Of a stretch of 64,000 bases of DNA, positions 8,104-62,863 are shown piece by piece. How positions within the stretch are numbered: position 1 is the first letter of the stretch; each line of letters begins with the position of its first letter. A program made the position numbers and the translations under genes. The notes under the pieces are model-generated. The model searched no databases. It was not told where the DNA came from and was given only the letters and a program-made list of their open reading frames with translations. Origin of the DNA: a virus; the IMG/VR virus record IMGVR_UViG_3300008448_000052; one strand, 5' to 3'.

Positions 8104-9054
8104 ATGTCTAACTATTACTTTACGTCAACGCAATTATTGGCGTCTATTAAACGTAGATGCCTCATTCCTGCTTCACAATCTACATTTAGTGACCAAGATT
8201 TTCTAGACTTTGCAACAGAAGAAATGAACATGGGCGTTGTCCCAACCGTAATTCAACTACATGAAGACTACTATCTTTATGAAACGCTTATTCCACTAGT
8301 AAATGGTCAAATTAAATATCAAATACCCTATCGTGCCATTGGTAATAAAACTAGAGACATTGCTTTAGTTGATAGTAATGGTGGTTATAGCGTAATGACT
8401 CGCATTGGTATTGGTGAAATTGCTACATGGAATTTCTCAAATAGCATTTATGCCTATTACATAGCTAGTAATGAAATATGTCTAGTGCCGTCTGATACAA
8501 ATACCACATTTAATGGCGGGTTTCTATCAGTGTCTTATTACCTTCGTCCAAATTCTCTAGTGCCAGATACAGAAGTTGCATCTATTACATCTATTGATAG
8601 AATAACTGGCATTATATCAGTTTCTTCATTGCCTGATACTTTTTCAACTAATACACTATTAGACTTTATTCAATTTAAGTCTCCACATAAAATTTTAAGT
8701 TTTGACGTTGCTCCTTTGTCAACCGACGCCATTGGTTCTACTATTACTTTTGATTTATCTAACATTCCAAGTTCTTTGTCAGTTGGTGATAAAATTTCAT
8801 TAGCTACTCAAACGTGCATTCCTCAAATACCTTCGGATATGCATGTCATGCTTGCTGCCAGAGTTGCTTCAAGACTACTTGAGGCTATTGGTGATACAGA
8901 AGGTTTACAAAATGCTAACCAAAAATTAGCAGAATTAGAAAACAAAACTGCAACTCTCATTAATAACCGTGTTGAAGATTCTCCTCGTCGCATTGTCAGT
9001 GCATACGGAACCCTTCGTAGTGGACTAAATCGTAGAGGTAGAGGTCGATGGTAA
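8104..9054 (+). CDS. virion structural protein (putative)
   Basis: 316-aa ORF within the structural gene run. Confidence 0.5.
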   Translation: MSNYYFTSTQLLASIKRRCLIPASQSTFSDQDFLDFATEEMNMGVVPTVIQLHEDYYLYETLIPLVNGQIKYQIPYRAIGNKTRDIALVDSNGGYSVMTRIGIGEIATWNFSNSIYAYYIASNEICLVPSDTNTTFNGGFLSVSYYLRPNSLVPDTEVASITSIDRITGIISVSSLPDTFSTNTLLDFIQFKSPHKILSFDVAPLSTDAIGSTITFDLSNIPSSLSVGDKISLATQTCIPQIPSDMHVMLAARVASRLLEAIGDTEGLQNANQKLAELENKTATLINNRVEDSPRRIVSAYGTLRSGLNRRGRGRW

Positions 9055-25346: not shown

Positions 25347-26213
25347 CTACTTGTCAAGCAATTCTTTATAATTTTTAGATAAAGCATAGTTTTTAAATTG
25401 ATTTATGTCTAAAACTGTACTAAAAATTCCCATTGTATCGTATAATCGTTTTAAGAGTTGTTGGACATCATGGTTTGGACTGTTTTTGTTCCATTTTTTA
25501 CTTTGTTCTAATCCATATGAATATTCAGCTTTAATCTTAATTTTCTGAGTATGTTCTTTTTTAGTTTTCTTTGCCTTGTTTGGCTTAATTTTAATGATTG
25601 ACAAGTTTTTTGTTGGATAGAGGTAAATTTTATCACCTTGTTGAATGAGTTCCTCGTTCTTAATAGCATCCCAAACTGCAACCTCATTTGTTCTAATATC
25701 AACTTCTTTACCCTTTATGTAATAAACTTTCTTAGGCATTAGCATTTCTTTACTATTTGGTCTAAGTTCTGTTTTAAGAACATATCCTTTACAAGCTAGC
25801 ACTGGTTCGGTAATTGTTTTTTTAGCACACCATCTAGAAATGTCTTGAATGTTTACAGCTTCTTTTACATATTTTTCATAAATGTCAACAACAGTATTCT
25901 GCTTATCTTCTAATATGGCATCAATGATTTCTTTCATAAGAGAAGCTAAAGCTGGTTCTTTGGTAGATGATTTAAACGCTGAACCCTTAATTTTAATTTT
26001 ATTAGTACCATGCTCTTTTAAAATATAGTTTTTAGCTCGAACAACAATTACTGTATCAAAATATCCATCATGGTCAAACTGTATTTTTTCAGGAAATTGA
26101 TTGTTAAGTTCTTCTAAAAAAGCATCCTGTTCTTCTTCTGTCCAAAATTCACCATTTGGTTTTTGAACTAAAATTGCATCTGTATCAACATTAACTAATT
26201 TTAAATTATGCAT
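25347..26213 (-). CDS. family B DNA polymerase, C-terminal fragment (motif C + thumb)
   Basis: Begins MHNLKLVNVDTDAILV (DTD motif C) and contains a KxY-like VRAKNYIL; sits directly behind the HEG that follows the N-terminal fragment. Confidence 0.6.
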   Translation of the reverse strand: MHNLKLVNVDTDAILVQKPNGEFWTEEEQDAFLEELNNQFPEKIQFDHDGYFDTVIVVRAKNYILKEHGTNKIKIKGSAFKSSTKEPALASLMKEIIDAILEDKQNTVVDIYEKYVKEAVNIQDISRWCAKKTITEPVLACKGYVLKTELRPNSKEMLMPKKVYYIKGKEVDIRTNEVAVWDAIKNEELIQQGDKIYLYPTKNLSIIKIKPNKAKKTKKEHTQKIKIKAEYSYGLEQSKKWNKNSPNHDVQQLLKRLYDTMGIFSTVLDINQFKNYALSKNYKELLDK

Positions 26214-26877
26214 AATAAAAAACTATCCCATTTTTTGTTTTTTTAGTTCTACCTTTTAAAATATCACAAACAGAACTAACTGAAATTTTCCAATATTTAG
26301 CAGCATCAACTAAACTTTTAAAATTATTATTCATATTGTCTTTCAGTGGTTTTTTACTTTTTTCTATAAATGGTAGTAAATCTAAATGTCGCTTTAGTCT
26401 TTTTGAAATTTTAGACATTTTACTTTTAGTTTCATCAGTATGTTTAAATTTTTTATTTAATTTCAATTGTATCATTTTAATTTTAAATTCTTTTGTCCAT
26501 TTCTTACCATACATATAATGATCAGAACCTTTAATTATTTTTCTTTTTTTAAACTTATCCATTGTTTGTTTACTATGCTTTCGGCCATCCATTGGAGCAG
26601 ACGAGTGTAGACTAATATTATATTTAGGTTGTAAGTTGTTTAAATATAATTGTTCTATTTTTAATTTATTCTTTAGTAAACATTCTTCTATAACCTCAAA
26701 TTTAAAATTATCTTTACCATATTTTTTAAAAGCAATATTAAGTTTATAATTAGGATGTATTCCTTGTTCAGCTTTTCTAAAGTGTTCTTGTTTTCTTTTA
26801 GTCCAATTATTTGTTGAACCTATGTAAAAATCTTTAGTTATTATATTAATAATTTTATATATGTAACTCATTTTCAT
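26206..26877 (-). CDS. GIY-YIG homing endonuclease
   Basis: YIYKIINIITKDFYIGSTNNWTKRKQEH... GIY-YIG core plus basic NUMOD-like C-terminal DNA-binding region. Confidence 0.8.
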   Translation of the reverse strand: MKMSYIYKIINIITKDFYIGSTNNWTKRKQEHFRKAEQGIHPNYKLNIAFKKYGKDNFKFEVIEECLLKNKLKIEQLYLNNLQPKYNISLHSSAPMDGRKHSKQTMDKFKKRKIIKGSDHYMYGKKWTKEFKIKMIQLKLNKKFKHTDETKSKMSKISKRLKRHLDLLPFIEKSKKPLKDNMNNNFKSLVDAAKYWKISVSSVCDILKGRTKKTKNGIVFYYA

Positions 26878-28435
26878 GAGTGCTTAGTCCTTTCCAATAT
26901 TCTACGGTTTTACCAGTTGCAAACATAATTGCATCAGTTAGTACTTTTCTACCCATTCTGGTTACAAAAGCTGCTCCTTGAACAAAATTAAAGTTTAATC
27001 CTGCTGCCCCCATAAATCCATACAAAGAGTTTGCTGCGACTTTTTGAGATTGCTCTAAATCTTTGTAATATTGTTGTCCTGTTTCTTTTGCTAGTTTCTT
27101 ATTTTTTAATCTTTCAGTTGCAAAATATTCTGTAATTTTTAAAAAGTTACCGTGAGGGTCTTTTTCTTTAGAATAGACTTTATAGTGTCTCATTAATGAA
27201 GGATATAGAGAAGAAACGTCACACTTTAAAGCATTTTTATAAATGCCAGCAATACCAAAAGAAATTGCCCCCTCGAATGATTGAACTTCATCTGCTTTTG
27301 GAATACTAAACCCTATTTGCAAATAACTTCTAACCATTATATTATTAATTTGACTACCCGTTGCACTAATGCCCATTGTTTGGAAAGACTTGCTCACCGA
27401 CTGGGTAAAATAGAATTTAGAAGGAATCATTATATCAAATAGTTTTAAACCATCGTCAGAGTCATCATTGGCATATTCTTTGGCTTTATTCCACATTTCA
27501 GGTTTTCCATCTAAATAATCTAAATAATATTGCCACATATGTTTAGCATCAACAAATGTTCTATTTTCTTTTTCTAATCCTAAATGTCTAATAATTGGTT
27601 TTAACCCATAACTAGGAAAACTTCTACCAATGTCATATTGATATGATAGAAACATTGTATCAATAATTTCTCTACCAAAAATGTGACAATTAAAATATTC
27701 AATGTCTTGAGAGCCGTCTTTTCTAAAAGAGCTTTCCCATCTATCAAACCTAATAGCTGAATCATCACGACCTAAATCAAGCTGAATACCTAACTCTCTA
27801 GCTCTAAATGCTAAATATGGTATGTCAAATGATAGTATGTTATGTCCAAGCATTATACTTGGGTCAACAATTTTAACCCATTTAATCCAAGCCTTTATCA
27901 TGGCTGCTTCATTGCCTTTGTAAGTGATGAGGTCAAATATTTTCTTAATGATGCGACCATCAGGTCTACGGTAAGTGTTGGTTATCATTACCACTTTAGA
28001 AAGTTCGGTATGCTTTAGTGTAGTTGTTTCTATGTCAAACGATAAGGCAGACACTTCTTTTGGTACCATGCCCTTAAAGTATGTCATGCCATTATAAACT
28101 AATGTTGCTTCTTTCTGGTCAAAAATACGATAGTAGTCTACATTGTTCTTTTTTAATAGACCAACGACTTTGTCTCGTTCTTCTTGATTATTGAAGGTGC
28201 CCAAATATTTATAGTGTTGAACGCCTTCTAGTGTAGTTTGTTTATCTGAGATTTGTTTATTGGTAATGAACCAAAATGTAGAAGGCTTTTTAGTTAGTTC
28301 TAGCTGACCATTTTTAAGTTGACGATAAATGTATAATTCATTATCTTTGTTTTCAATAGAAACTATACGATCAGTATTATCTTTACCAAATACTAATTTT
28401 TCAGTTTCTTCTGGTGTTGCAAGTAAAGTATTCAT
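26855..28435 (-). CDS. family B DNA polymerase, N-terminal fragment (N-domain, 3'-5' exo, motifs A and B)
   Basis: FDIETT (Exo I), HNILSFDIPYL (Exo II), DVSSLYPS (motif A), KVAANSLYGFMG (motif B); stops before motif C. Confidence 0.8.
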   Translation of the reverse strand: MNTLLATPEETEKLVFGKDNTDRIVSIENKDNELYIYRQLKNGQLELTKKPSTFWFITNKQISDKQTTLEGVQHYKYLGTFNNQEERDKVVGLLKKNNVDYYRIFDQKEATLVYNGMTYFKGMVPKEVSALSFDIETTTLKHTELSKVVMITNTYRRPDGRIIKKIFDLITYKGNEAAMIKAWIKWVKIVDPSIMLGHNILSFDIPYLAFRARELGIQLDLGRDDSAIRFDRWESSFRKDGSQDIEYFNCHIFGREIIDTMFLSYQYDIGRSFPSYGLKPIIRHLGLEKENRTFVDAKHMWQYYLDYLDGKPEMWNKAKEYANDDSDDGLKLFDIMIPSKFYFTQSVSKSFQTMGISATGSQINNIMVRSYLQIGFSIPKADEVQSFEGAISFGIAGIYKNALKCDVSSLYPSLMRHYKVYSKEKDPHGNFLKITEYFATERLKNKKLAKETGQQYYKDLEQSQKVAANSLYGFMGAAGLNFNFVQGAAFVTRMGRKVLTDAIMFATGKTVEYWKGLSTHENELHI

Positions 28436-28436
28436 A

Positions 28437-29204
28437 TTATCTTTTTGGATAGGGTTTTATTAAGTGTTTAATATTAGTATACAACACATGTTTCCTTTTG
28501 CCAACAAAATAAAAGTATCTATGTTTACTTTTCTGTTTAACAAATTTAGCATTAGGGTATCTCTTTAGAATTTCATCTTTACGTTGAGAGCCAATTTTAG
28601 ACCTCATGGCTCTAGACCCGTACAATTTGCCATCTATGATGACACCAAATCGTTCCTTGTTTTTATTTTTAGGATTGCTGTCTCTCATTGAACCAACATA
28701 ATGAAAATTACAGGCTTGGTAAATGGTTCCCACTTCTCCAGCTAAGTGGTCGGTAGTGCAAGTTATCACCTCATATTGAGGCGGTAGCAGCTTTATTGCA
28801 CCCATTATAAGCTTACTGTTAGTGTTCTTAGGTGTCCAATGAAGACATACTCCTCTGGATAATAGCAGCATCTTACCAGTGTAACCATACTTATCCCAAA
28901 CGCCTAAATTCTCAGAATATTCAGGACCAAACACTACAACTCCACCACATAGTTCACCAAAGAAAATACCAAAGGCATATTTATTAACCGCTGGCATACA
29001 ACCAAGCCATTCATATTTCTCTATGATGGTTTTGGCTAATGACATGGTAATGGGTTTAACTATGGCATTCTTTAAAGTTAAGTCAGCATTTGTCCAGTAT
29101 GGGTTTTCCAATTCTTCTTTAGCGGTACGAACTCTTATGTCATACTGCCAAGCTGTACCGATGCTATCCTTATCTAAAGATTCTTCATACCTAGTTTTTG
29201 ACAT
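28437..29204 (-). CDS. hypothetical protein
   Basis: 255-aa ORF coupled between polB and the primase-helicase. Confidence 0.45.
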   Translation of the reverse strand: MSKTRYEESLDKDSIGTAWQYDIRVRTAKEELENPYWTNADLTLKNAIVKPITMSLAKTIIEKYEWLGCMPAVNKYAFGIFFGELCGGVVVFGPEYSENLGVWDKYGYTGKMLLLSRGVCLHWTPKNTNSKLIMGAIKLLPPQYEVITCTTDHLAGEVGTIYQACNFHYVGSMRDSNPKNKNKERFGVIIDGKLYGSRAMRSKIGSQRKDEILKRYPNAKFVKQKSKHRYFYFVGKRKHVLYTNIKHLIKPYPKR

Positions 29205-37901: not shown

Positions 37902-38710
37902 TATTTCTTATCTCCTGTGTTTTGTATCATTGAACCATGATAGTTGTAAACTTCGTCTAAACCGTTAATGTGTAAATGTTCTATACCCTTAGAATAAATA
38001 CCATGAGTTGTGTATAATGCAACCTTATTAGCTCCAGACTCTTTTAATAGTTTTGCAGCCGCAATGAATGTTGCGCCGCCATCACATAAATCGTCTACTA
38101 TAAGAATAGTTTTACCAGTTAAATCAATGGGAAACTTGTGTTTATATTTTAAACCTTCAATGGCACCAGTTTCTTGATTACGTTTCTTTTCTAGAATGAT
38201 AGGGGCTCCATAGTATTCTTCATCATATTGATAGCCACGAGCCGCCGCACCAGCATCAGGAAAACATACATAGTCAGTATTCGATTGTTTTAACACTTGT
38301 TGAATTCTAGGTGAAGGATTTATGTTAATAATGCTAGGCATTATAATGTCTTTAACAGCTTTTATATTGTGCATGTCCACTGTTGTAATGCTTTCAAATA
38401 CTTGACCCATAAGTCTTAAAAAAGGATATAGCGCAAACGTAGACGTGTTTGTTGTAGTTTTGTCTTGACGCGCATAGGGTAGTGTATCACAAAATAAATT
38501 TGCTTTTTTATTAGTTAAAGTAAGTAATAGGTGACCCAATTGATATAGGTGAAAAATTTCCGCTTCATTTTCAAATTTGTATTGAATTCTTACTTCATCT
38601 TTTTGTTTAGGCGCAGGGTTTAAATGCCATGCTTGTGAAGTGCCATCAGGAAATTTAGTAATTTCAAATTCAATAAGTTGTCCAGTCGTCTCGTTAGTAA
38701 TGATAATCAT
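37901..38710 (-). CDS. ribose-phosphate pyrophosphokinase (Prs)-like / Adps-like phosphoribosyltransferase-fold protein
   Basis: ILIVDDLCDGGATFIAAAKLL PRPP-binding loop of type I PRTases; 269 aa with an N-terminal Prs-like half. Confidence 0.6.
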   Translation of the reverse strand: MIIITNETTGQLIEFEITKFPDGTSQAWHLNPAPKQKDEVRIQYKFENEAEIFHLYQLGHLLLTLTNKKANLFCDTLPYARQDKTTTNTSTFALYPFLRLMGQVFESITTVDMHNIKAVKDIIMPSIININPSPRIQQVLKQSNTDYVCFPDAGAAARGYQYDEEYYGAPIILEKKRNQETGAIEGLKYKHKFPIDLTGKTILIVDDLCDGGATFIAAAKLLKESGANKVALYTTHGIYSKGIEHLHINGLDEVYNYHGSMIQNTGDKK

Positions 38711-41266: not shown

Positions 41267-41519
41267 TGTTTCCCCCGATGCGTTCTGTTAAAGTTGTTTT
41301 ACCACTTTTATAAGTGCTTATAGTTTCTGAACAATTAGTAAAGTAGTGATAACGATAGTCACTAAATCTATATACTTTACATCCATCTTTTTGAAAAAGA
41401 AGAACTACGTCAAAATTGTCGGCTGGATTAGCAGTTTGCACTGACACCGCCTGTCCAGATTTAGAACAAGTAAATCCTGTCAACATAAGCGATGCTGTTA
41501 CTAATAGTATTAATTTCAT
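41253..41519 (-). CDS. small secreted protein (signal peptide)
   Basis: 88 aa; N-terminal MKLILLVTASLMLTGFTC signal-like sequence. Confidence 0.4.
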   Translation of the reverse strand: MKLILLVTASLMLTGFTCSKSGQAVSVQTANPADNFDVVLLFQKDGCKVYRFSDYRYHYFTNCSETISTYKSGKTTLTERIGGNNVRK

Positions 41520-43879
41520 AATTCATTTCCTTTTGGTCTAATTAATTTTACTACAAAACCCGTTAATTTGTCAAACTCTTTTTTGTGTATTAAAAACAAA
41601 GATGGACCATATTCGCTGTATTCGTCTAAAAACTGTTGCTTAAATATTCCTAACCCTTTAGGTATGTTTTCTGGGTGGATTTGTTCAGCATACTCTGCCG
41701 CTTTTTTATACCATCCGTAAGCATTTGCCGTAGCACTAGATGCTTTATGAATAAGTTCTTTTTCTATTGCTTCAACTTCTGGTAATATTTCTTCTGGGAT
41801 AAGGGCTTTATATTCAGAAGGTAGGACAAACTTTCCATTAGGTAGTTCTGCCATTTTTTCCCAAATAGAAATGGGACTGATGCTGTTTAGAATTTTCTGC
41901 ATTTTACAATAGGCAGCACCTTTGTCCTTAATGCGAAATCCAGAAGGAACATAACGACGAACTACACCTTCAAAGTTTACAGGCCACGTTTGTTGTAACT
42001 CTTTAATTTCTTCCGCTGTATAGTTATAGGTTTTACGAAGCGGGAAACCAAGAATGTCGGCAAATTCTTTTAATAGGTCTTCATCTAAGTCTTTACCAGT
42101 AACCTTATTTATGGCACATAATAGGACAAGAGTTTTATCATTACCATAGTCAACAACAAGTCTAGCACCATCATTAAATCTGTTTTCTGGATATATAATC
42201 TCAAAACAAGGTGTATAACGCTTTAACGTGCCCAGCATTGTATTATATTTCTCAGAGCCAGCCTCAACCTTAGCTAGGGCTTCTTGTAGCATGGTTGTGC
42301 CAATTTTAGCTTGGTCAGATTGAAAAGAACCACGAGTAGCTATTTTGTATTTATCGTCAACTGGGTCTAAATATAAAATACCCAAAGAACCATCTAGCTT
42401 TTCCTCTACTACAAAAGTTTCACCTACTGGTGGTTGTGGTAGGGTTTTGTTTTCAAGCTCGAACTCATTAAAAAATTTGGACAAGGGTCTAGCAACAGTG
42501 TCGCCCGTTTCCTTATTTAGAATGAGTCCACGACATTCAATGGTATACTTATTCCAATAGCGTTCATATGTACATTTTTCGCTATAGTTAAAAAGTACCA
42601 ATGGTCCACTTTCTTGTTTACGAAGATAGCCTTGCTCTACTAATTTGTCGTATGTTTCAAATTTATTCATATGGTCCCATTCATCGTCTTTAGGTTTTTT
42701 TGGAACATTGCTATCTATTTCGGTTACAATGGCTATTTCTTTTTTAGGACCGTGGATTGTTGCTATTCGGTTTTTTTCACCAAAACAAGTTCCACCATCA
42801 AGTCCATAAATTGTTTGTTCTTTATCATTAACAATAATGGCATTTTTAATGTCTTCAATAACTATGTGTCCAAAAAATAATTTATACTGCGGAAATTTAC
42901 GTTTCTTGTGAAACCAATAGCCAGCCGAAGCTTCTCTAGTAAAAGTTCCCATTTTGTCATCAAAATAACGAGCATACAAACAAAATTCTCTAGTGGTGTT
43001 TTCTGGATGTACGTTTGGATTAAACCCAGCATGGGTGAAATAGTTATCGTGTATTTTTATAATGTAAGGAAAATCCATCATTTTACAATATAGTTCATGC
43101 TTTTTTTCACCCTCTAACATGTCAGATTTAGTTAGTTGGTCAATGGTGCCTTGAATGCTGTCAGTATGAACCTTATTGCCTCTTAGCCAACGTTTGAGCT
43201 TGTGTCCATGATTTGAGTCAGTGACATAAACATTGGGTGTATGTAATACAAACTCAAAAACCTTGTCACATTGTTCGCCTCTATCGTTTAAGTCCCCAAG
43301 AATGAGAAGCATATCGTTTCCAGCAACATATGAAACTAATTCTAAAGTACGAACCATTTCATCATAGCAAGAGTGAGGGTCGGCTAGCACTATGACTCTT
43401 TTAAAGTCATTAGAATAATTAGTTAAGTCAAGAACCTTTAGTCCTGACTTATGTTCTTGCATCGGTATCCAAATGTCACATTCGTTTTTAATACCTTCAA
43501 ATTCTTCTTTATCAAAGTACATGTTTAATGCTTTATATGCGGTCTCAGCATCGCCAGCTTCTATTGTTGGGTGGTTTCTGCGCTTCATTATTCTATCAAA
43601 AGCCACTGCATACGGAACATGGAAATATCTATATTCAATGACATACCCAGCGGCTTTAGCGGGTTCAACATATCGCATACGTTGTTCTTTAGTAAAACCA
43701 ATGCGGTCAACAATGATGTCGTGTTTTTGTTTTAATAAACTATTAAACTCTCGTAAATGACCTTCTTTTCCTTGTCTATCTTGGTTGACAATAAAATAGT
43801 TCTCAGCTTGAGTAGCTGCCCAAGTGCTTTTACCTGAACCTTGGCTTCCTATTGTTAGTATTAATTTAGGTTTAGTCAT
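41516..43879 (-). CDS. tripartite polynucleotide kinase-phosphatase-ligase (Pnkp-like RNA repair enzyme)
   Basis: N-terminal P-loop GSQGSGKST (5'-kinase); central calcineurin-type phosphoesterase ADPH / GDLNDRG / SNHGH; C-terminal nucleotidyltransferase motif I EEKLDGSLG (ligase-like). Confidence 0.65.
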   Translation of the reverse strand: MTKPKLILTIGSQGSGKSTWAATQAENYFIVNQDRQGKEGHLREFNSLLKQKHDIIVDRIGFTKEQRMRYVEPAKAAGYVIEYRYFHVPYAVAFDRIMKRRNHPTIEAGDAETAYKALNMYFDKEEFEGIKNECDIWIPMQEHKSGLKVLDLTNYSNDFKRVIVLADPHSCYDEMVRTLELVSYVAGNDMLLILGDLNDRGEQCDKVFEFVLHTPNVYVTDSNHGHKLKRWLRGNKVHTDSIQGTIDQLTKSDMLEGEKKHELYCKMMDFPYIIKIHDNYFTHAGFNPNVHPENTTREFCLYARYFDDKMGTFTREASAGYWFHKKRKFPQYKLFFGHIVIEDIKNAIIVNDKEQTIYGLDGGTCFGEKNRIATIHGPKKEIAIVTEIDSNVPKKPKDDEWDHMNKFETYDKLVEQGYLRKQESGPLVLFNYSEKCTYERYWNKYTIECRGLILNKETGDTVARPLSKFFNEFELENKTLPQPPVGETFVVEEKLDGSLGILYLDPVDDKYKIATRGSFQSDQAKIGTTMLQEALAKVEAGSEKYNTMLGTLKRYTPCFEIIYPENRFNDGARLVVDYGNDKTLVLLCAINKVTGKDLDEDLLKEFADILGFPLRKTYNYTAEEIKELQQTWPVNFEGVVRRYVPSGFRIKDKGAAYCKMQKILNSISPISIWEKMAELPNGKFVLPSEYKALIPEEILPEVEAIEKELIHKASSATANAYGWYKKAAEYAEQIHPENIPKGLGIFKQQFLDEYSEYGPSLFLIHKKEFDKLTGFVVKLIRPKGNEL

Positions 43880-44405
43880 TCTTTATCTCGCTTAAGTATA
43901 TTTTAGTATTTCTACGTAATGTATTTTTTCTACATAGAACATAGGCAGACATTATTGGATTATTTATAAATTCCAAAGGATTCAATTTTTCTTCTACATA
44001 GTTATGCACCCATGTGTCTTTATAAACAAAAGCCCAAGTGCCCTCATGTTTAGAAGTTCTTTGCCCTAACAATAATATGTGTTTTTCACTAATGGGTCGT
44101 TCTATATATTCTTCATTAGTCTTTAATGCCGTAACCGTAACTTCTTTTACTACCCAACCATGTTTTGATAGCATTTTTTTCATTGCTCTATCTGACCAAG
44201 TTTTAGCAGTTTTAGGTAACGACTTAGATATAGTTTCAGGGGGTAGGTGTAACAAGGCTGAAAGAGCATATGTACCACACGAGCCTCTTACTTTTTTTTC
44301 GTCAACATGAGTCGGTTTAAACATATAATAGTAGGGTTCTTCATACATGTTAAACATGAATGAACTGGTTTGTTTATTATATTTGTTTGCTGAACCAAAT
44401 TTCAT
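43872..44405 (-). CDS. hypothetical protein (start at internal ATG with ATGA overlap onto HNH stop)
   Basis: The track ORF begins at 44474, but Met24 at 44405 forms an ATGA junction with the stop of the upstream HNH gene. Confidence 0.4.
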   Translation of the reverse strand: MKFGSANKYNKQTSSFMFNMYEEPYYYMFKPTHVDEKKVRGSCGTYALSALLHLPPETISKSLPKTAKTWSDRAMKKMLSKHGWVVKEVTVTALKTNEEYIERPISEKHILLLGQRTSKHEGTWAFVYKDTWVHNYVEEKLNPLEFINNPIMSAYVLCRKNTLRRNTKIYLSEIKND

Positions 44406-44929
44406 AACAAGCTCCCCATGTTTCTTTTTACACCTTTTAATCCAAAACCTTCCGAGTGATGCTGCACTTTCCAATGAGCACTAGAACCTTTTTTAACATT
44501 ACAAGCAGTGCAACATGGTGTTAAATTTCTAATGTTATCAGAGCCACCTAGTGCCAATGGTACAATGTGATCTAATTCTGGAAATGTTTTTCTAAAATCA
44601 AACGTAATGCCACAATAGCCACAAAATAATTTACCGTTTAAGTGAAGTAGCACCATAGACTTGCGTAATTTCCATTTATTCTTATAATGTAGTCCACCAT
44701 CACTTTTTACGGGCTGATTTATATATTTTTTATATAATTCATCCTGAGTAAAGAAAATTTTATTACCTAAACTAAAATAGACATTTTTACTAGTTTTGAA
44801 TATAAAACTTACTATAAGCAATTTTACTTGTAGAATATAATTTAAGAAAAAATACTTTCCACTATTATAATAAAGACTAACAATACTAATAATATCATAA
44901 AATACCTGTTTCTTTTGTGTTGTATCCAT
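44402..44929 (-). CDS. HNH endonuclease
   Basis: CGYCG...LDHIVPLALGGSDNIRNLTPCCTACNVKK HNH motif. Confidence 0.65.
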   Translation of the reverse strand: MDTTQKKQVFYDIISIVSLYYNSGKYFFLNYILQVKLLIVSFIFKTSKNVYFSLGNKIFFTQDELYKKYINQPVKSDGGLHYKNKWKLRKSMVLLHLNGKLFCGYCGITFDFRKTFPELDHIVPLALGGSDNIRNLTPCCTACNVKKGSSAHWKVQHHSEGFGLKGVKRNMGSLL

Positions 44930-47221: not shown

Positions 47222-47956
47222 TTAAGCCTCTTTCTCGGAAACTAGTTCCGTTTGTTTTTTGTCTGTAAACATAACCATAGCATTTTGTGACAGCTTGACA
47301 TCCCAGTGTATGAGCTTGGGATATTCTTCGCTCATTAACACATTCTTCACTGTTTTAACAATGAGACATGCTGCACCAAACGCTGTGTAAATGGTGCTTT
47401 TCGCTGTGCAAGGGGTCTGGACACCTTCTTCATTAGTGTGTAATGACTTTCTATAGCCCGTTGTATTAGATAGAGTCTGTGGGTCTAGTACAGCATACTG
47501 ACTATACTTTTCAGCACCCATGCGAGGGTCAACTAATAATTCAGCGCCATGTTGTGAAGCCATTTCTAAACAAAACTTTCTTACTTCCATGTCATCAGCA
47601 CAACAAATGAGATAGGAACCTCTTAATAGTCTACGCATTTCTTCTTCTGGTATGGTGTCATCAAATAGTGCTGGTATGGCGGTTATTTCTATTTCAGCAA
47701 AGTCCTGAATGATGGCCTTTAATGCCTCAACTTTTGAACTACCTATGTCTTTCTTTCTGTAAATTTGATTATTCATGTTTTCAATGGCAACAACGTCAGC
47801 ATCGAAAACTGTAATGTTACTTACTCCCATTTTGGACAATGCAAATGTTGTGAATGAGCCTGTAGCCCCAGCGCCAACAATGACCACTGGTTTGTCTAAT
47901 ACCATATAATTTATGATGTCAGACTGTCTAATGAGGTGGCTGTTAGCGTTAAACAT
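47222..47956 (-). CDS. E1-like (ThiF/MoeB-family) ubiquitin-like activating enzyme
   Basis: VVIVGAGATGSFTTFALSKMGVSNITVFDADVVAIENMNNQIY matches the ThiF GxGxxG...DxDxVExSNLNRQ block; start taken at the internal ATG (47956), 8-nt overlap with JAB stop and GAGGTGG SD; track ORF extends to 48007. Confidence 0.75.
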   Translation of the reverse strand: MFNANSHLIRQSDIINYMVLDKPVVIVGAGATGSFTTFALSKMGVSNITVFDADVVAIENMNNQIYRKKDIGSSKVEALKAIIQDFAEIEITAIPALFDDTIPEEEMRRLLRGSYLICCADDMEVRKFCLEMASQHGAELLVDPRMGAEKYSQYAVLDPQTLSNTTGYRKSLHTNEEGVQTPCTAKSTIYTAFGAACLIVKTVKNVLMSEEYPKLIHWDVKLSQNAMVMFTDKKQTELVSEKEA

Positions 47957-48893
47957 CGCTACCACCTCTATTTGAACGAGAAAAGCGTTCGTGCATATCC
48001 GCACCATCTAATTCGTCAGGTTCAAACATGCCCGCTGCTTCTAACATAGTTAATTCATTTTCCTTATCGTTTAATTCTTCTTCACCAGCTTTATTTAAGA
48101 ATTTTACATATGACTCAGAAGACATTCGTAAAGCTTCTGCTTCGGCGGCAATGCCTTTACCTAGTAGACCATTAATCCACTTAGTAGGGGTAAGCTGTCC
48201 AGCTAATTCTAGTTGTTCATTATCGTCATGAAAAAGTGAAACAGGACGTTTGCTGCTCTTATCTACCCAACATTTTAAGTCATAGTCCCACTCTTGGTTT
48301 GATCTATCAATGATAGAGCTTACTCCCGATGTTTTAGTTGTGTTAGATTTAGCTAATGCTCTTGAGTGTTCAGTAATTTTTTCATCATAGGATGTGTCCC
48401 AATCTGCTGGGTGTAAATAGTATGTGTCCACGTCATCAATGAAAGACGTTGCATCGCCAAACAATGCATGCTTAGTTTTAAAACAAACTGCCGACTTCAT
48501 TTCTTCGCGTTTGTTAAAAACTGTGGCTATGATGTAGCCATTGCCACCATATTTAAGAATGGTGTCCTTATCGGTACCAGACCAAAATACACCCATGTTA
48601 GCATGACTATGCCACCAAAGTTTTGTCGAACCTTCTCCAGATGCCTTGTGTTGCTCTATCATAAGCTTACCTAAATCGGCTTCATCGGTTTCAGTGCTAG
48701 TTGGTCCGTTTACTTGCTTCACTAGAAATACGTCTGTCACTGTAAATACTTTATTTTTCTTGTCATACTCAACATTACCAAAACCACTTATTTCATAAGG
48801 TGATTTTTTTACCCAATGCATAATTTTTTGATAAACTTCTAAAGGATAATGAATTTGAATGCCAGTGTTTTCTACTAAGTTTTTTTTGCTCAT
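47949..48893 (-). CDS. JAB/MPN (JAMM) metalloprotease with C-terminal extension
   Basis: HSHANMGVFWSGTD is an exact HxHx7Sx2D JAMM motif; Glu upstream; AAAGGA SD. Confidence 0.75.
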   Translation of the reverse strand: MSKKNLVENTGIQIHYPLEVYQKIMHWVKKSPYEISGFGNVEYDKKNKVFTVTDVFLVKQVNGPTSTETDEADLGKLMIEQHKASGEGSTKLWWHSHANMGVFWSGTDKDTILKYGGNGYIIATVFNKREEMKSAVCFKTKHALFGDATSFIDDVDTYYLHPADWDTSYDEKITEHSRALAKSNTTKTSGVSSIIDRSNQEWDYDLKCWVDKSSKRPVSLFHDDNEQLELAGQLTPTKWINGLLGKGIAAEAEALRMSSESYVKFLNKAGEEELNDKENELTMLEAAGMFEPDELDGADMHERFSRSNRGGSDV

Positions 48894-54860: not shown

Positions 54861-55272
54861 TTAGGGTCTCGCTTTCTGTTAAATTCCATTTCTGAACGGC
54901 TTTAATATTATAAAGACGTTCTTTAGGTTTATCAAAATGAATCCACTTGGACTTTTTTACCACTTTACCAGCTTTTATAGCATTTTGAGCATTTCTTATG
55001 GTACTTAGTGCCAATAGCAATGCTGGTACGCTAATGTCACCAGCAGGGTCAGATAATGCCCAAGATAGCTTTTTACTTATGACACTGGCCTCATAAGCGT
55101 TTAACTTAGTTAAATCTAAGGTTAATAGCTCCTCTACTGGTAAGTCAACTAGTGTACGTCTTTTTATAAACCTACGTTTTATTCTTCTACCAGCTTGTCT
55201 ATATTTTAAACCATAAGCAGGGTTTAATATGGACATGGCATAATCATAATCTAATTGGTGTTTAATGGTCAT
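54853..55272 (-). CDS. hypothetical protein
   Basis: 139-aa ORF. Confidence 0.4.
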   Translation of the reverse strand: MTIKHQLDYDYAMSILNPAYGLKYRQAGRRIKRRFIKRRTLVDLPVEELLTLDLTKLNAYEASVISKKLSWALSDPAGDISVPALLLALSTIRNAQNAIKAGKVVKKSKWIHFDKPKERLYNIKAVQKWNLTESETLND

Positions 55273-55589
55273 AAAGGCTGATGTCCAATGCTTATTAAAT
55301 GGGTAATGTCAGTTTGACCGCTGGATACTTTTATTTTTTCATAAATGGATAACAATTTATGTTGTAAATGGTTTATGGCATCGGTAAGCTTCTGAATGAC
55401 AATGTGGTGTCTTATGGCAACACTATCGTAACCATGATCGTAGGCTCTTTGGTAGGCAGCCTCATGATGGACTTTTTTCATTTCAAGCCTAAACATGTCC
55501 TGTTTAAGATGGACAATGCGTAATGCATACCCTTGATGGTATTTTAGGTCAGGATTGTTTTCTAGTTGTTTTTCTCTGCTGATGCTCAC
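55269..55589 (-). CDS. hypothetical protein
   Basis: 106-aa ORF, last gene before the long non-coding region. Confidence 0.4.
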   Translation of the reverse strand: MSISREKQLENNPDLKYHQGYALRIVHLKQDMFRLEMKKVHHEAAYQRAYDHGYDSVAIRHHIVIQKLTDAINHLQHKLLSIYEKIKVSSGQTDITHLISIGHQPL

Positions 55590-55710
55590 ATGTCCTCCTT
55601 GACTTGTTATAACTAGTTTATACTGGTTTTATAAAAATGCAACATAAAAACAAATATTCTTAAATGATGCTGGGCGTTTAGCTAGGTGCATTATAAAGAA
55701 AACACTTTAT

Positions 55711-55737
55711 TAACAAGTAATAATAGAGTAGCCTATG
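55711..55737 (+). promoter_or_regulatory. conserved phage promoter motif, copy 4 (TAACAAGTAATAATAGAGTAGCC), plus strand inside minus-strand block
   Basis: Same 16-nt core as copies 1-3; no + strand gene follows. Confidence 0.45.
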
Positions 55738-55757
55738 CGTTTTACCTATTTTCATCA

Positions 55758-55786
55758 TTGACAATGGGCATTAAAAGACATATACT
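55758..55786 (+). promoter_or_regulatory. consensus sigma70 promoter TTGACA-17-TATACT on + strand
   Basis: TTGACA 55758-55763, 17-nt spacer, TATACT 55781-55786; fires toward the iteron array. Confidence 0.5.
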
Positions 55787-56039
55787 ATTCTTATAGGCAA
55801 ATAGATTATTTGACGTGAAGCGTAAACAATATGGATACAATAGGACTAAAGGCGCCTTTTAAATAAGCCTTTGGAACGACGATACCTAGCATAGAGGCGG
55901 CGATTTTTCAAGCCAACACGCCACTGCACCCCGATAAATCACTATGGGTCAGCGCACAGCATCTCGAATAATTGGACATAGTTTTACATGTTTTGTTTGT
56001 GGTAAAAGACCATAGATAGGGCATGGTTTTGCTTAAGAG

Positions 56040-56200
56040 TCACCCAGCGAAGCGAAGCCAACGGCGATAGCGAAGCGACTTTACCTTAGCGAAGACCAAC
56101 TCAACTAGATGTCACCCTAGCGAACGTAGCCAAAGGCGATAGTGAGCGTACAGCACTTAGCAATGACCGATTCGCTAAGGCAACAAAGCGGCTATAGTCA
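56040..56200. repeat. iteron-like repeat array (AGCGAAG / GGCGATAGCGAAGCG units plus inverted copy)
   Basis: AGCGAAGCGAAG (56046-56057), GGCGATAGCGAAGCG (56063-56077), TTAGCGAAG (56086-56094), TAGCGAAC (56118-56125), GGCGATAGTGAGCG (56135-56148), inverted TTCGCTAAGG (56171-56180) pairing with CCTTAGCGAA (56084-56093). Confidence 0.45.
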
Positions 56201-56328
56201 GGACGATGATGACTTGCAGTATACCAAATACTACAAGGCATATGATGAATTCTTTAGCAGAGGTGTGCCCAAAGTGGGCTTCTTTGTTTGAAAACAAATG
56301 GACATTCTTACCTAAAGTATTGGTTTTG

Positions 56329-56562
56329 TTAGGGTTTTTCATGTTTAGTTTTCTTTTTGGGTTTAGACTTAGGCTTGGGTTTATATTTTTGGACTACTCC
56401 TATGTAGTAGTAGTCTGTAAAGCATTCTAAGCCCTCAATGAAGTCATGCTTAGTATAATTAGTCCAGTCTTTAGACCTATCTTCATTGACTAGGTTAACC
56501 ACTTTTCTAGTAGTTAGCACAAAGAATTTTCCAGTTTCATAATGTTGTATGACGTGTAGCAT
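56329..56562 (-). CDS. hypothetical protein (basic C-terminal tail)
   Basis: 77-aa ORF. Confidence 0.35.
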   Translation of the reverse strand: MLHVIQHYETGKFFVLTTRKVVNLVNEDRSKDWTNYTKHDFIEGLECFTDYYYIGVVQKYKPKPKSKPKKKTKHEKP

Positions 56563-59129: not shown

Positions 59130-59535
59130 GTTGTCCCCTTTGTTGTTGAGTTAAATATAATTCGTTTTATTTGTTAAAAGCAACGATTATTTTCATGACG
59201 TCCAGTGTCAAACAAAATTAATCGCTAAAGCTTCACTCAATGGCTTCGATCTTTTCATAGACAAAACGTCTTTATAGGCCAAAGGCACCGCATCAAAAGA
59301 CATGGTCTGTATGTTTACCTATGTCACTAGTTACGTCTCACCTTGAGCCGTTTAGAGAGTTTTAGCTTAGTTTTGAATAATGAGTAAAAGTCAAGGCATA
59401 TAAACTTAGTTAACGCATTGTGTCATAAATAGGGTAGGGTTACATTATCAACTTCTTTAAAAGAATTAGCAAGACTCATAAAGAATAGCACAATGGAACG
59501 AAAATGCAACTAGAAATGCGTTGCGTCAAAAAGTG

Positions 59536-59572
59536 AGTAAAAAGAAGGCACCAAGTATAAACAAGGTGCCTA
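59536..59572 (-). terminator. rho-independent terminator (minus strand)
   Basis: Minus-strand GGCACC-12 nt-GGTGCC stem followed by TTCTTTTT; 40 nt downstream of the gene ending at 59615. Confidence 0.5.
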
Positions 59573-59614
59573 AGAGTGTCCGATAGGACGTTGTAACGAA
59601 AGTCTAGACGACGT

Positions 59615-60713: not shown

Positions 60714-61083
60714 AGCGCCCCCTTTGTTTTGGTTATTTACTTAATTTAGCACAATTTAGGAACTTTACAACACCAAATGCACTGCGTTAATTGCTTCGCT
60801 CATACTTTTAGACCAAAGACCGACCAAAGCGATACAACTATTTCATAGGGAAAACGTCTTAATACTGTCACCATTGAATTATTTTAGTCGGGTCTATATA
60901 TTGACCAGCTTAAGAAATGATGCGGTGCTATGGCTCTAATAGGCTTAAATTCGATAAACTACTAAAAGTCAAAGAATACTTTTAATGCAGGACGTTAGAT
61001 AAAAACCAATAAAAAACTAGCCCAATCTCCAGAATATCAAAAAAATCAACTAGTTACAAGCCACACTGCGTCAAAGAAATGCC

Positions 61084-61108
61084 ATAAAAAAAGGCACCTT
61101 TCGATGCC
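61084..61108 (-). terminator. rho-independent terminator (minus strand only)
   Basis: Minus-strand GGCAUC-GAAA-GGUGCC (6-bp stem with one G.U pair, GNRA loop) then UUUUUUU; on the plus strand the same position would be a C-A mismatch, so it is strand-specific. Confidence 0.55.
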
Positions 61109-61136
61109 CTTTGTTAAACTATAGCTCGTTTAGTGC

Positions 61137-62074: not shown

Positions 62075-62316
62075 AATTCTAATATAGTCGAATAGCTTTG
62101 AGAGTACAAGTAAAAAAAGACTAATTTTTTACGTTAGCACTTGCGTCATAGTCGAATAGCTAGGGTTAAAATGACGCCATATGTCAATATAATGCTTAAT
62201 GCGTCGATAGATTGATAGGGTTAAGCGATAATGGTTATCAATTAGACTCACTCACTCTCTTGCAAATTCCATACCAACTCGTTTAATGACGCATCTAGTC
62301 ACCTAAAATAAAGTTC

Positions 62317-62346
62317 TTGACAATGCACCGTGTCATGAGTTACACT
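62317..62346 (+). promoter_or_regulatory. sigma70-like promoter TTGACA-17/18-TACACT
   Basis: TTGACA 62317-62322; TTACAC/TACACT 62340-62346. Confidence 0.4.
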
Positions 62347-62802
62347 AAACTAGTGCTTTGCTTGTTTATTCATAAACCCGATAATCCGCTAGACGACATG
62401 TTATGACGCAATACAGCAAGTTGTTTAGACGCATTATGTTAGGCATAGGTTTTGCTAGTGCAATAGTTGTGCCAACATATTTCAATGCATAGGTTATAGG
62501 TTAAGTCAAGTGTTGACTCAATGTGTCATGAAGAATTCTTTGGTATGGTTCTTGCAATAGCAATATGCATGCCAGTATTCTACATTGCACTGCGTCTAAC
62601 GCTATGCGTTAACACGGTGTGTCATACGAATTTACTTGACTAACGCGGGGTGTTAGGGGGGTAGGGTGACATCGAATGGGGGTGATGCTTTTGCCGGCTC
62701 TGTCGAACATTCAGTCAATACAATCCTAATCGACTAGACCTTTACTAGACACCCCCCCTGTTGACTTTTACATCCTGAATTCTTTGGCTATATATTTTTT
62801 CC

Positions 62803-62831
62803 TTGACAAATCGTAATCGACTGGCTATACT
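62803..62831 (+). promoter_or_regulatory. consensus sigma70 promoter TTGACA-17-TATACT
   Basis: TTGACAAATcGTAaTC...TATACT; shares TTGACAAATNGTANTC with the 37.7-kb promoter; 32 nt upstream of the gene at 62864. Confidence 0.5.
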
Positions 62832-62863
62832 GTTTACTTAACCCAAAACAAAGGTAAAACATC

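Follow-up and report, generated by a model that had tools for sequence, protein, structure and literature searches.

Control units in which an antisense RNA or a convergent promoter acts in cis include lambda oop RNA and PRE/PR, P22 sar, pCF10 prgQ/prgX, and the late antisense transcripts that run over the early regions of lytic phages. Here we describe a locus that resembles these phage units in kind. It is a 740-base stretch between two early-gene blocks (positions 55590–56328, referred to here as the island; about 1% of the genome), and it lies within 64,000 nucleotides of viral DNA from IMG/VR record IMGVR_UViG_3300008448_000052, the whole of which is referred to as the window. As in the described units, the island appears to specify a short non-coding transcript that runs against the operon direction, with its own promoter and intrinsic terminator, between gene clusters. 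It differs from them in that its plus-strand RNA overlaps no annotated open reading frame (ORF), so that any overlap would be with a predicted minus-strand transcript, and in that two promoter types stand in tandem ahead of a GC-rich cargo of 350 nt, part of which is tandemly duplicated. The island showed no sequence relationship to these units, and no family membership can be claimed. Based on its sequence features, we propose that the island is a self-contained plus-strand non-coding RNA unit, oriented opposite to all of its neighbors and expressed both early and late, a proposal to which we give an even chance of being correct.

The source is an uncultured freshwater phage; DNA identical to it has been recovered from lake metagenomes at JGI (two) and from metagenome assemblies at NCBI (two). 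The source waters are represented by JGI samples 3300008110 and 3300008107 and by the samples from which GCA_031546225 and GCA_031545195 derive. Structural genes occupy the plus strand from 0.7 to 20.2 kb (major capsid gene at 714–1949, SU10-type adaptor at 8104–9054), and a 42-kb minus-strand block (20.4–62.1 kb) carries replication genes, repair genes, and many small orphan genes. The island is the largest gap in this block and is truly non-coding. A preliminary description of this DNA had reported a gap without a credible ORF here, and our analysis bears this out. The ORF list contains nothing longer than 55 aa within 55590–56328, and no frame of the six stays free of stops for more than 53 codons, compared to a mean longest run of 73 ± 17 in 500 shuffled sequences, 93% of which equal or exceed the observed length. 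Stop density in all frames matches the random expectation, a coding-potential model gave no clear frame over the island, and a six-frame Pfam scan was empty. The PHROG scan gave one marginal match (E 0.0016), and a tblastn search with the conceptual peptide of that frame found nothing. Two other explanations for the gap were rejected. An intron splitting the two flanking ORFs is not consistent with the AAGGAGG ribosome-binding site and GTG start that the 106-aa gene has of its own, or with the unstructured minus strand; a decayed homing endonuclease or other gene is not consistent with the empty Pfam scan, the marginal PHROG match being unsupported by tblastn.

The features of the island, with coordinates and strand, are the following.

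55590–56328, no strand: non-coding island between the minus-strand genes 55269–55589 (106 aa) and 56329–56562 (77 aa)
55690–55716, minus: candidate promoter of the 106-aa gene, TTGTTA-15-TATAAT, from a relaxed scan; weak, with a spacer of only 15 nt
55711–55726, plus: late-gene motif TAACAAGTAATAATAG, a promoter-type signal; exact copy, conserved in distant relatives
55758–55786, plus: sigma70-type promoter TTGACA-17-TATACT, 11 of 12 matches, predicted start near 55793
55793–56035, plus: candidate RNA-1, 244 nt (about 240), from the promoter start to T1; structured on the plus strand only
55848–55859, no strand: 12-bp palindrome AAAGGCGCCTTT, present but not above chance
55987–56035, plus: T1, a 17-bp hairpin with six G-U pairs (55987–56025) followed by GUUUUGCUU; intrinsic-terminator-like or processing hairpin
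56039–56110, plus: tandem repeat unit 1, with AGCGAAG at 56046, 56051, 56069, and 56088 and GCGAAGC at 56047, 56052, and 56070
56111–56183, plus: tandem repeat unit 2, about 78% identical to unit 1; its 3' end (56171–56183) is an inverted copy
56142–56291, plus: 49-codon ORF with a GTG start and AAGG 5 nt upstream, its stop falling in T2; probably not a gene
56175–56342, minus: 55-codon ORF, a gene call in two JGI contigs with a low coding score; probably spurious
56218–56226, minus: candidate extended -10 element TGGTATACT facing the plus-strand unit; pattern count in the window at chance level
56256–56289, plus: T2, a weaker terminator-like element with core GCCCAAAGUGGGC and UUCUUUGUUU, recognized at pattern level only

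Four signals in the island, two of promoter type and two of terminator type, share the plus orientation. The first is the late-gene motif. It occurs as four exact copies in the window (544, 4318, 12946, and 55711), all on the plus strand, and the other three lie upstream of structural genes, the first of them (544) upstream of the major capsid gene. The same 16-mer is found at homologous places upstream of structural genes in two relatives, L127 (5878 and 7303, both minus) and L141 (662), which share only about 40% amino-acid identity with this phage; exact retention at this distance indicates that the motif is a conserved signal and not a chance word. The copy in the island had been placed at 55711–55737 in the preliminary description. 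An exact plus-strand motif does begin there, but the shared stretch is 16–19 nt rather than 27, with 19 nt at 55710–55728 identical to 543–561. By analogy to the phiEco32-like phages, near which we place this phage because of its SU10-type adaptor, the motif is probably a late promoter read by a phage-directed RNA polymerase holoenzyme. In the phiEco32-like phages a phage sigma factor reads a single short element (PMC8948821), and these phages likewise have a short, highly conserved element before late genes, early and late gene clusters that run in opposite directions, and an adaptor of the SU10 type. Their consensus, tAATGTAtA, differs from the motif described here, no sigma-factor or single-subunit RNA polymerase gene was recognized in the window, and, unlike in the phiEco32-like arrangement, one copy of the motif points against early genes with no gene behind it.

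The second signal is the TTGACA-17-TATACT promoter, which is present at 55758–55786 as previously described, with 11 of 12 matches. No other plus-strand sigma70-type site between 20.4 and 62 kb reaches 11 of 12 matches, and the -10 hexamer of this one, TATACT, also occurs at the sites at 62803 (plus) and 37704 (minus). The late motif and the sigma70-type site are 47 nt apart, and each is the sole plus-strand example of its kind inside the 42-kb minus-strand block. The two minus-strand candidates listed above are weak and neither is above chance; if used, they would give a face-to-face promoter arrangement. The candidate at 55690–55716 overlaps the late motif in reverse, its -35 hexamer being reverse-complementary to the motif's first bases. 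A separate stretch on the minus strand at 33320–33358 is identical to the sigma70-type promoter of the island at 30 of 39 nt, and the likeness extends to the spacer and the bases downstream (E 0.002 in a BLAST comparison within the window). It lies inside a minus-strand ORF, and may be coincidental or mark a related internal promoter.

The DNA downstream of these signals folds in a strand-specific manner. RNA-1 has a predicted energy of -62.8 kcal/mol on the plus strand (z -2.60, with 1 of 200 shuffles equally good), compared to -48.2 kcal/mol on the minus strand (z +0.66). For T1 alone the plus strand gives -20.6 kcal/mol (z -4.76) and the same bases on the minus strand -4.4 kcal/mol (z -0.50), and its stem is the longest among the terminator-like sites in 40.4–60.4 kb. 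T2 gives -13.9 kcal/mol (z -2.2) on the plus strand and -7.7 kcal/mol on the minus strand. When 120-nt sliding windows were folded, the two strongest folds (z -3.45 each) were both found on the plus strand only. Base composition also sets the island apart. Its core (55850–56200) is the most GC-rich 351 nt of the window, at 48% versus 35%, and GC content downstream of the promoters is 46–52%, whereas an AT-rich stretch (22–34% GC) lies at 55600–55830, upstream of and around the promoters. A GC-rich core of this kind is typical of a constrained RNA or of a separately acquired module. The plus strand of the island is 55–60% purine, like the sense strand of the phage's genes, compared to 45% for the surrounding plus strand. 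The island thus has the make-up of a stand-alone non-coding RNA gene, in that a promoter and same-strand terminator-type hairpins bracket an ORF-free segment, and in that structure beyond shuffled sequences is confined to one strand for RNA-1 and T1, although the whole 500-nt plus-strand transcript is not unusually stable (z -1.06).

A regulatory non-coding RNA antisense to early messages had been offered in the preliminary description as an alternative to an origin of replication. A plus-strand non-coding RNA is the reading that fits best, because both promoter-type signals are co-oriented, both hairpins form on the plus strand only, RNA-1 is structured on the plus strand only, and the plus strand is purine-rich. 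The antisense part of the suggestion needs to be modified: the predicted transcripts stop before the neighboring minus-strand ORF, which leaves read-through or leader RNA, rather than annotated early coding sequence, as the only RNA to which they could be antisense. We infer the use of the signals, the RNA ends, and the regulatory effect as follows. Early in infection, host RNA polymerase would start near 55793 from the sigma70-type promoter, and the late-gene signal 47 nt upstream would add late transcription, such that the RNA would be made all through infection. The G-U-rich hairpin and U tract of 55987–56035 would stop most transcripts, yielding a structured RNA about 240 nt long. Transcripts that pass this point would extend through the repeat segment, which is purine-rich and unstructured, as far as T2, reaching about 500 nt with an end near 56289. 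Early minus-strand transcripts coming from 62 to 56.3 kb probably read through the island, because no minus-strand terminator-like site was found there (54.5–57.5 kb). Given this probable read-through, local convergent or antisense action is the most concrete mechanism, and the plus-strand RNA probably acts against the minus-strand read-through transcripts. In this mechanism, convergent transcription and base pairing between the plus-strand RNA and the read-through or leader RNA would together uncouple or shut down expression of the minus-strand cluster that follows (from 55589 leftwards), more strongly so late in infection. No complementarity beyond chance to trans targets within the phage was found.

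As a second, novel and much less probable reading, the read-through RNA with its unstructured AGCGAAG repeats could serve as an abundant decoy for a host RNA-binding defense or regulatory protein. Phage RNA decoys include the PhiTE pseudo-ToxI repeats and the CRISPR-repeat-like anti-CRISPR RNAs. Like these, the island would give a non-coding, promoter-driven, repeat-containing RNA in a lytic phage, and this phage has several likely counter-defense genes. Unlike these, the island contains just two copies, 72 nt each and 78% identical. It matches no Rfam family, and neither a host repeat nor a toxin that might be its cognate was found. ToxI-type arrays consist of near-identical 34–45 nt tandem repeats followed by a toxin gene on the same strand, whereas the island has two 72-nt copies and no downstream plus-strand gene. 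A CRISPR mini-array or repeat-like anti-CRISPR RNA has identical repeats with unrelated spacers; in the island the 'repeat' part (74%) and the 'spacer' part (78%) of the unit are equally diverged between the copies. The likely counter-defense or DNA-modification genes are found at 28437–29204, 35110–36651, 37901–38710, and 47222–48893, and the set comprises a Mom-family protein, a NAMPT-like nicotinamide phosphoribosyltransferase beside a PRPP-synthetase-like protein, and a ThiF-like and JAB-like pair.

Several results weigh against a plus-strand non-coding RNA unit. No homologue of the island was found in phage, plasmid, IMG/VR, JGI metagenome, or GTDB genome collections, the island having no DNA similarity to isolated phages or plasmids, and the six public contigs that carry it are all 100% identical with protein clusters lacking sequence variants. 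No Rfam match reached gathering level in the island (the only one in the window is a tRNA-like gene at 37440–37509). The core stem of T2 is just 5 bp, terminator-like patterns occur at chance level in this T-rich strand, and the stability of the 500-nt transcript is unremarkable, as noted above. The existence of the repeat array and its position after T1 are left unexplained, and the GC-rich cargo is not needed for a purely local antisense role.

Other searches around the island gave the following results. At E values up to 10, no Rfam match in the island exceeded 19 bits, and group I and II introns, ribozymes, ToxI, pRNA, 6S, GOLLD, and ROOL were rejected as candidates since none matched at gathering level or at E up to 10. 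ARAGORN found no tRNA or tmRNA. The flanking proteins are orphans without a recognizable domain, the 106-aa protein having no relatives. Synteny was followed by use of two proteins: in IMG/VR and JGI metagenomes the 209-aa protein led only to a mosaic, non-syntenic phage, and the homologues of the 120-aa protein are in unrelated phages. The contig of the relative L141 extends away from the early region and cannot hold an equivalent of the island. There is no close isolated phage, the top capsid match being 29% identical. All six public contigs span the island unbroken, and a physical genome end at the island was rejected on this basis; two of the contigs end about 0.5 kb to the left of it, at 55023 and 55112. 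Recoding of TAG was also rejected, since the standard code leaves the long late genes uninterrupted and a suppressor tRNA is absent.

Should the RNA exist, 1% of the genome would be given over to non-coding RNA in a lytic phage whose freshwater lineage is almost unexplored. Placed under host-type and phage-type promoters, this RNA would represent compact temporal control by an opposite-strand RNA unit, and would give a handle on how this phage group keeps its early gene clusters apart. In practical terms, the late motif, being exact, can serve to mark late transcription units across this lineage. The value of the element is limited at present, and it does not contradict the current understanding of phage regulation.

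The repeats of the island, reported together with a 12-bp palindrome, had been taken in the preliminary description as an iteron-like array. The 12-bp palindrome is present at 55848–55859 but carries no beyond-chance signal, as there are 12 perfect 12-bp palindromes in the window compared to 26 ± 5 in shuffled sequences. The direct repeats and the inverted pair between 56040 and 56200 are also present, and here the clustering is far above chance (post-hoc Poisson about 1e-12): four of the eight AGCGAAG copies on both strands of the window are found in unit 1, GGCGATAG starts at 56063 and 56135, and the 13-nt inverted pair 56081–56093/56171–56183 is 92% complementary and able to pair. They are not regularly spaced iterons, however. 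Units 1 and 2 align with a score of 47, versus 13 ± 2.5 for shuffled sequences, which points to one 72-nt tandem duplication, and the AGCGAAG copies are spaced by 5, 18, and 19 nt (5, 18, 19, and 31 nt for the motifs overall) without helical phasing. No further copy of the repeat unit was found elsewhere in the parts of the genome examined. An IMG/VR scan with the repeat core gave 106 matches, all to the pattern alone, and a scan of GTDB genomes for two copies of GGCGATAGYGA gave 89 loci, none homologous, that were rejected as coding repeats of the Gly-Asp-Ser-Asp type and cyanobacterial repeats. A likeness of GGCGATAG to the RfaH ops element GGCGGTAG was rejected because 7 of 8 matches is chance level for this length.

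Comparison with iteron origins, T7- and T4-type origins, ToxI-like arrays, CRISPR-like arrays, and morons showed at least one defining feature to be lacking in each case. The iteron origins (lambda ori, theta plasmids, P4 ori/crr) have three or more near-identical, phased direct repeats of 17–22 bp, whereas the island has two 72-nt units of about 78% identity, with no adjoining initiator gene and no switch in strand composition at the site. The precedents given for a promoter-plus-iteron origin, T7 (phi1.1A/B) and T4 (oriF/oriG), are inexact, since the T7 primary origin and T4 oriF/oriG are made of a promoter and an AT-rich or unwinding segment rather than a promoter and iterons. These, with ColE1 RNA II, are transcription-primed origins, and in common with them the island has promoters that fire into a non-coding segment and an RNA strand that is purine-rich and hybrid-favoring; as in ColE1, about 500 nt separate the promoter from the end of the unit. 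At the sequence level a promoter lies directly upstream, as in the T7 and T4 type, but the AT-rich unwinding element is missing downstream, the transcribed strand carries two terminator hairpins, and skew and gene context lend no support.

A transcription-activated origin can nonetheless be formulated without iterons. Plus-strand transcription would leave a persistent RNA-DNA hybrid over the purine-rich GC island, and the displaced plus strand, with three GCGAAGC mini-hairpin motifs, would act as a priming or helicase-loading site. The two promoters feed a hybrid-favoring segment: by nearest-neighbor energies, 56000–56250 on the plus strand ranks about 7th of about 2,550 windows (top ~0.3%), but ordinary genes score alike for hybrid preference. 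GCGAAGC occurs three times within 56047–56076, and motifs of this type form very stable DNA mini-hairpins, found at G4-type phage priming sites and RSF1010 ssiA (PMC13037366); the repeats that contain them stem from a single duplication with irregular motif spacing. The phage encodes its own DnaB-type helicase protein and family B polymerase, but the helicase gene is 24 kb from the island and no initiator gene is adjacent. The nearby AT-rich stretch at 55600–55830 speaks for an origin, but it lies upstream, with the DNA downstream of the promoters being the GC maximum of the window, and the two plus-strand terminator hairpins would release the RNA rather than keep it as a persistent primer. 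The cumulative GC skew, proposed earlier as a check, has its minimum at 61–62 kb and shows only a small local bump at the island, and the intergenic region at 62075–62863, with divergent promoters and a TGACGCA repeat family, is the better candidate. The promoter-plus-iteron origin is therefore unsupported, and we consider a transcription-activated origin of the general kind quite unlikely. More doubtful still is a novel variant, in which dual early and late transcription would form an R-loop whose displaced plus strand extrudes the three overlapping or adjacent d(GCGAAGC) mini-hairpins (56047–56076) as single-strand initiation signals for the helicase-primase.

Readings in which neither an RNA nor an origin is the product have also to be weighed. 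The island could be a non-functional remnant, a decayed plus-strand gene or acquired module ('moron') whose signals still look intact. Morons are insertions that carry a protein gene, are equipped with a promoter and terminator of their own, and stand out by their base composition. The island matches them in having its own promoter(s), terminator(s), deviant composition, and position between operon genes, but contains no credible ORF, the best candidate having 49 codons, a length within chance, and no relatives. A coding past is suggested by the sense-like purine loading of the plus strand, by weak coding-like scores in one plus-strand frame (56048–56190) that also has the marginal PHROG match, and by a duplication of 72 nt, or 24 codons; homing endonuclease genes in the phage indicate that insertions occur. 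Stop density is nevertheless random in all frames, no Pfam remnant or tblastn match was detected, an exact 16–19 nt late motif and an 11/12 sigma70 site are unexpected in decaying DNA, and a G-U hairpin that forms on one strand only is suggestive of selection acting on RNA. On balance we regard a remnant as unlikely. Rather improbable, too, is a DNA-level array in which the AGCGAAG/GGCGATAG repeats and their inverted copy are operators or a binding platform for a phage protein, the RNA being incidental. The motif cluster is far above chance and specific to the island, with direct copies plus one inverted copy, and RNA folding does not explain it, as the tandem-repeat segment of the plus strand is less structured than shuffled sequences (z +1.9 in sliding windows). 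However, the spacings of 5, 18, 19, and 31 nt show no helical phasing, the copies stem from the one duplication, the neighboring proteins lack a recognizable DNA-binding domain, and the array has no other copy in the parts of the genome examined. Least probable, in our estimation, is that the 49-codon ORF is a small protein gene carried as cargo behind a long leader regulated by T1. It has a GTG start with AAGG 5 nt upstream, ends exactly in T2, and has the top coding score of the six frames over 56144–56290, but that score is about zero. The ORF has no relative among 1.84 billion cluster representatives, is of a length expected by chance from shuffles, gives a low-confidence AlphaFold model (pLDDT 60.7), and was called by neither annotation pipeline. 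The 55-codon minus-strand ORF is probably spurious because the purine-rich strand there is the plus strand, a signature of plus-strand sense, and because its coding score is low.

Additional observations concern genes elsewhere in the window. The family B DNA polymerase is apparently split (25347–28435, minus): the exonuclease and N-terminal polymerase part is found at 26855–28435, followed by a GIY-YIG/NUMOD3 homing endonuclease gene at 26206–26877 and then a 288-aa ORF at 25347–26213. A separate HNH endonuclease gene is located at 44402–44929. The tRNA-like gene at 37440–37509 (minus) scores 50.8 bits with the Rfam tRNA model and was not called by ARAGORN. A 4-nt UUCG loop caps its anticodon stem (UCGGA/UCCGA), leaving the gene three nucleotides short and without an anticodon; it could be a decoy or a non-decoding tRNA mimic. 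A TTGACA-17-TATACT promoter of sigma70 type is found upstream of it, at 37704–37676. A fusion of polynucleotide kinase-phosphatase and RNA ligase is encoded at 41516–43879, and a further RNA ligase and an enzyme of the CCA-adding type are located outside the window (L177).

The cumulative GC skew has its extremes at about 20–21 kb and 61–62 kb, where gene orientation switches; because GC skew in phages also tracks transcription, this is weak evidence on origins. At the 61–62 kb minimum is 62075–62863, a divergent intergenic region of 790 bp that separates the minus-strand block from a block of small plus-strand genes. It contains a sigma70-type promoter (62803–62831), 5–6 copies of TGACGCA/TGCGTCA, an exact 14-nt repeat at 62084 and 62148, other direct and inverted repeats, and runs of G and C at 62650–62760. 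Its coincidence with the skew minimum makes the region, with these elements, a better candidate than the island for a genome terminus, origin, or regulatory hub. Two more non-coding gaps are found in the early minus-strand block, at 59130–59614 (485 nt) and 60714–61136 (423 nt). Each has one copy of a TGACGCA-family motif, and the second also has a terminator-like hairpin, AAAAAAAGGCACCTTTCGATGCCCTTTGTT.

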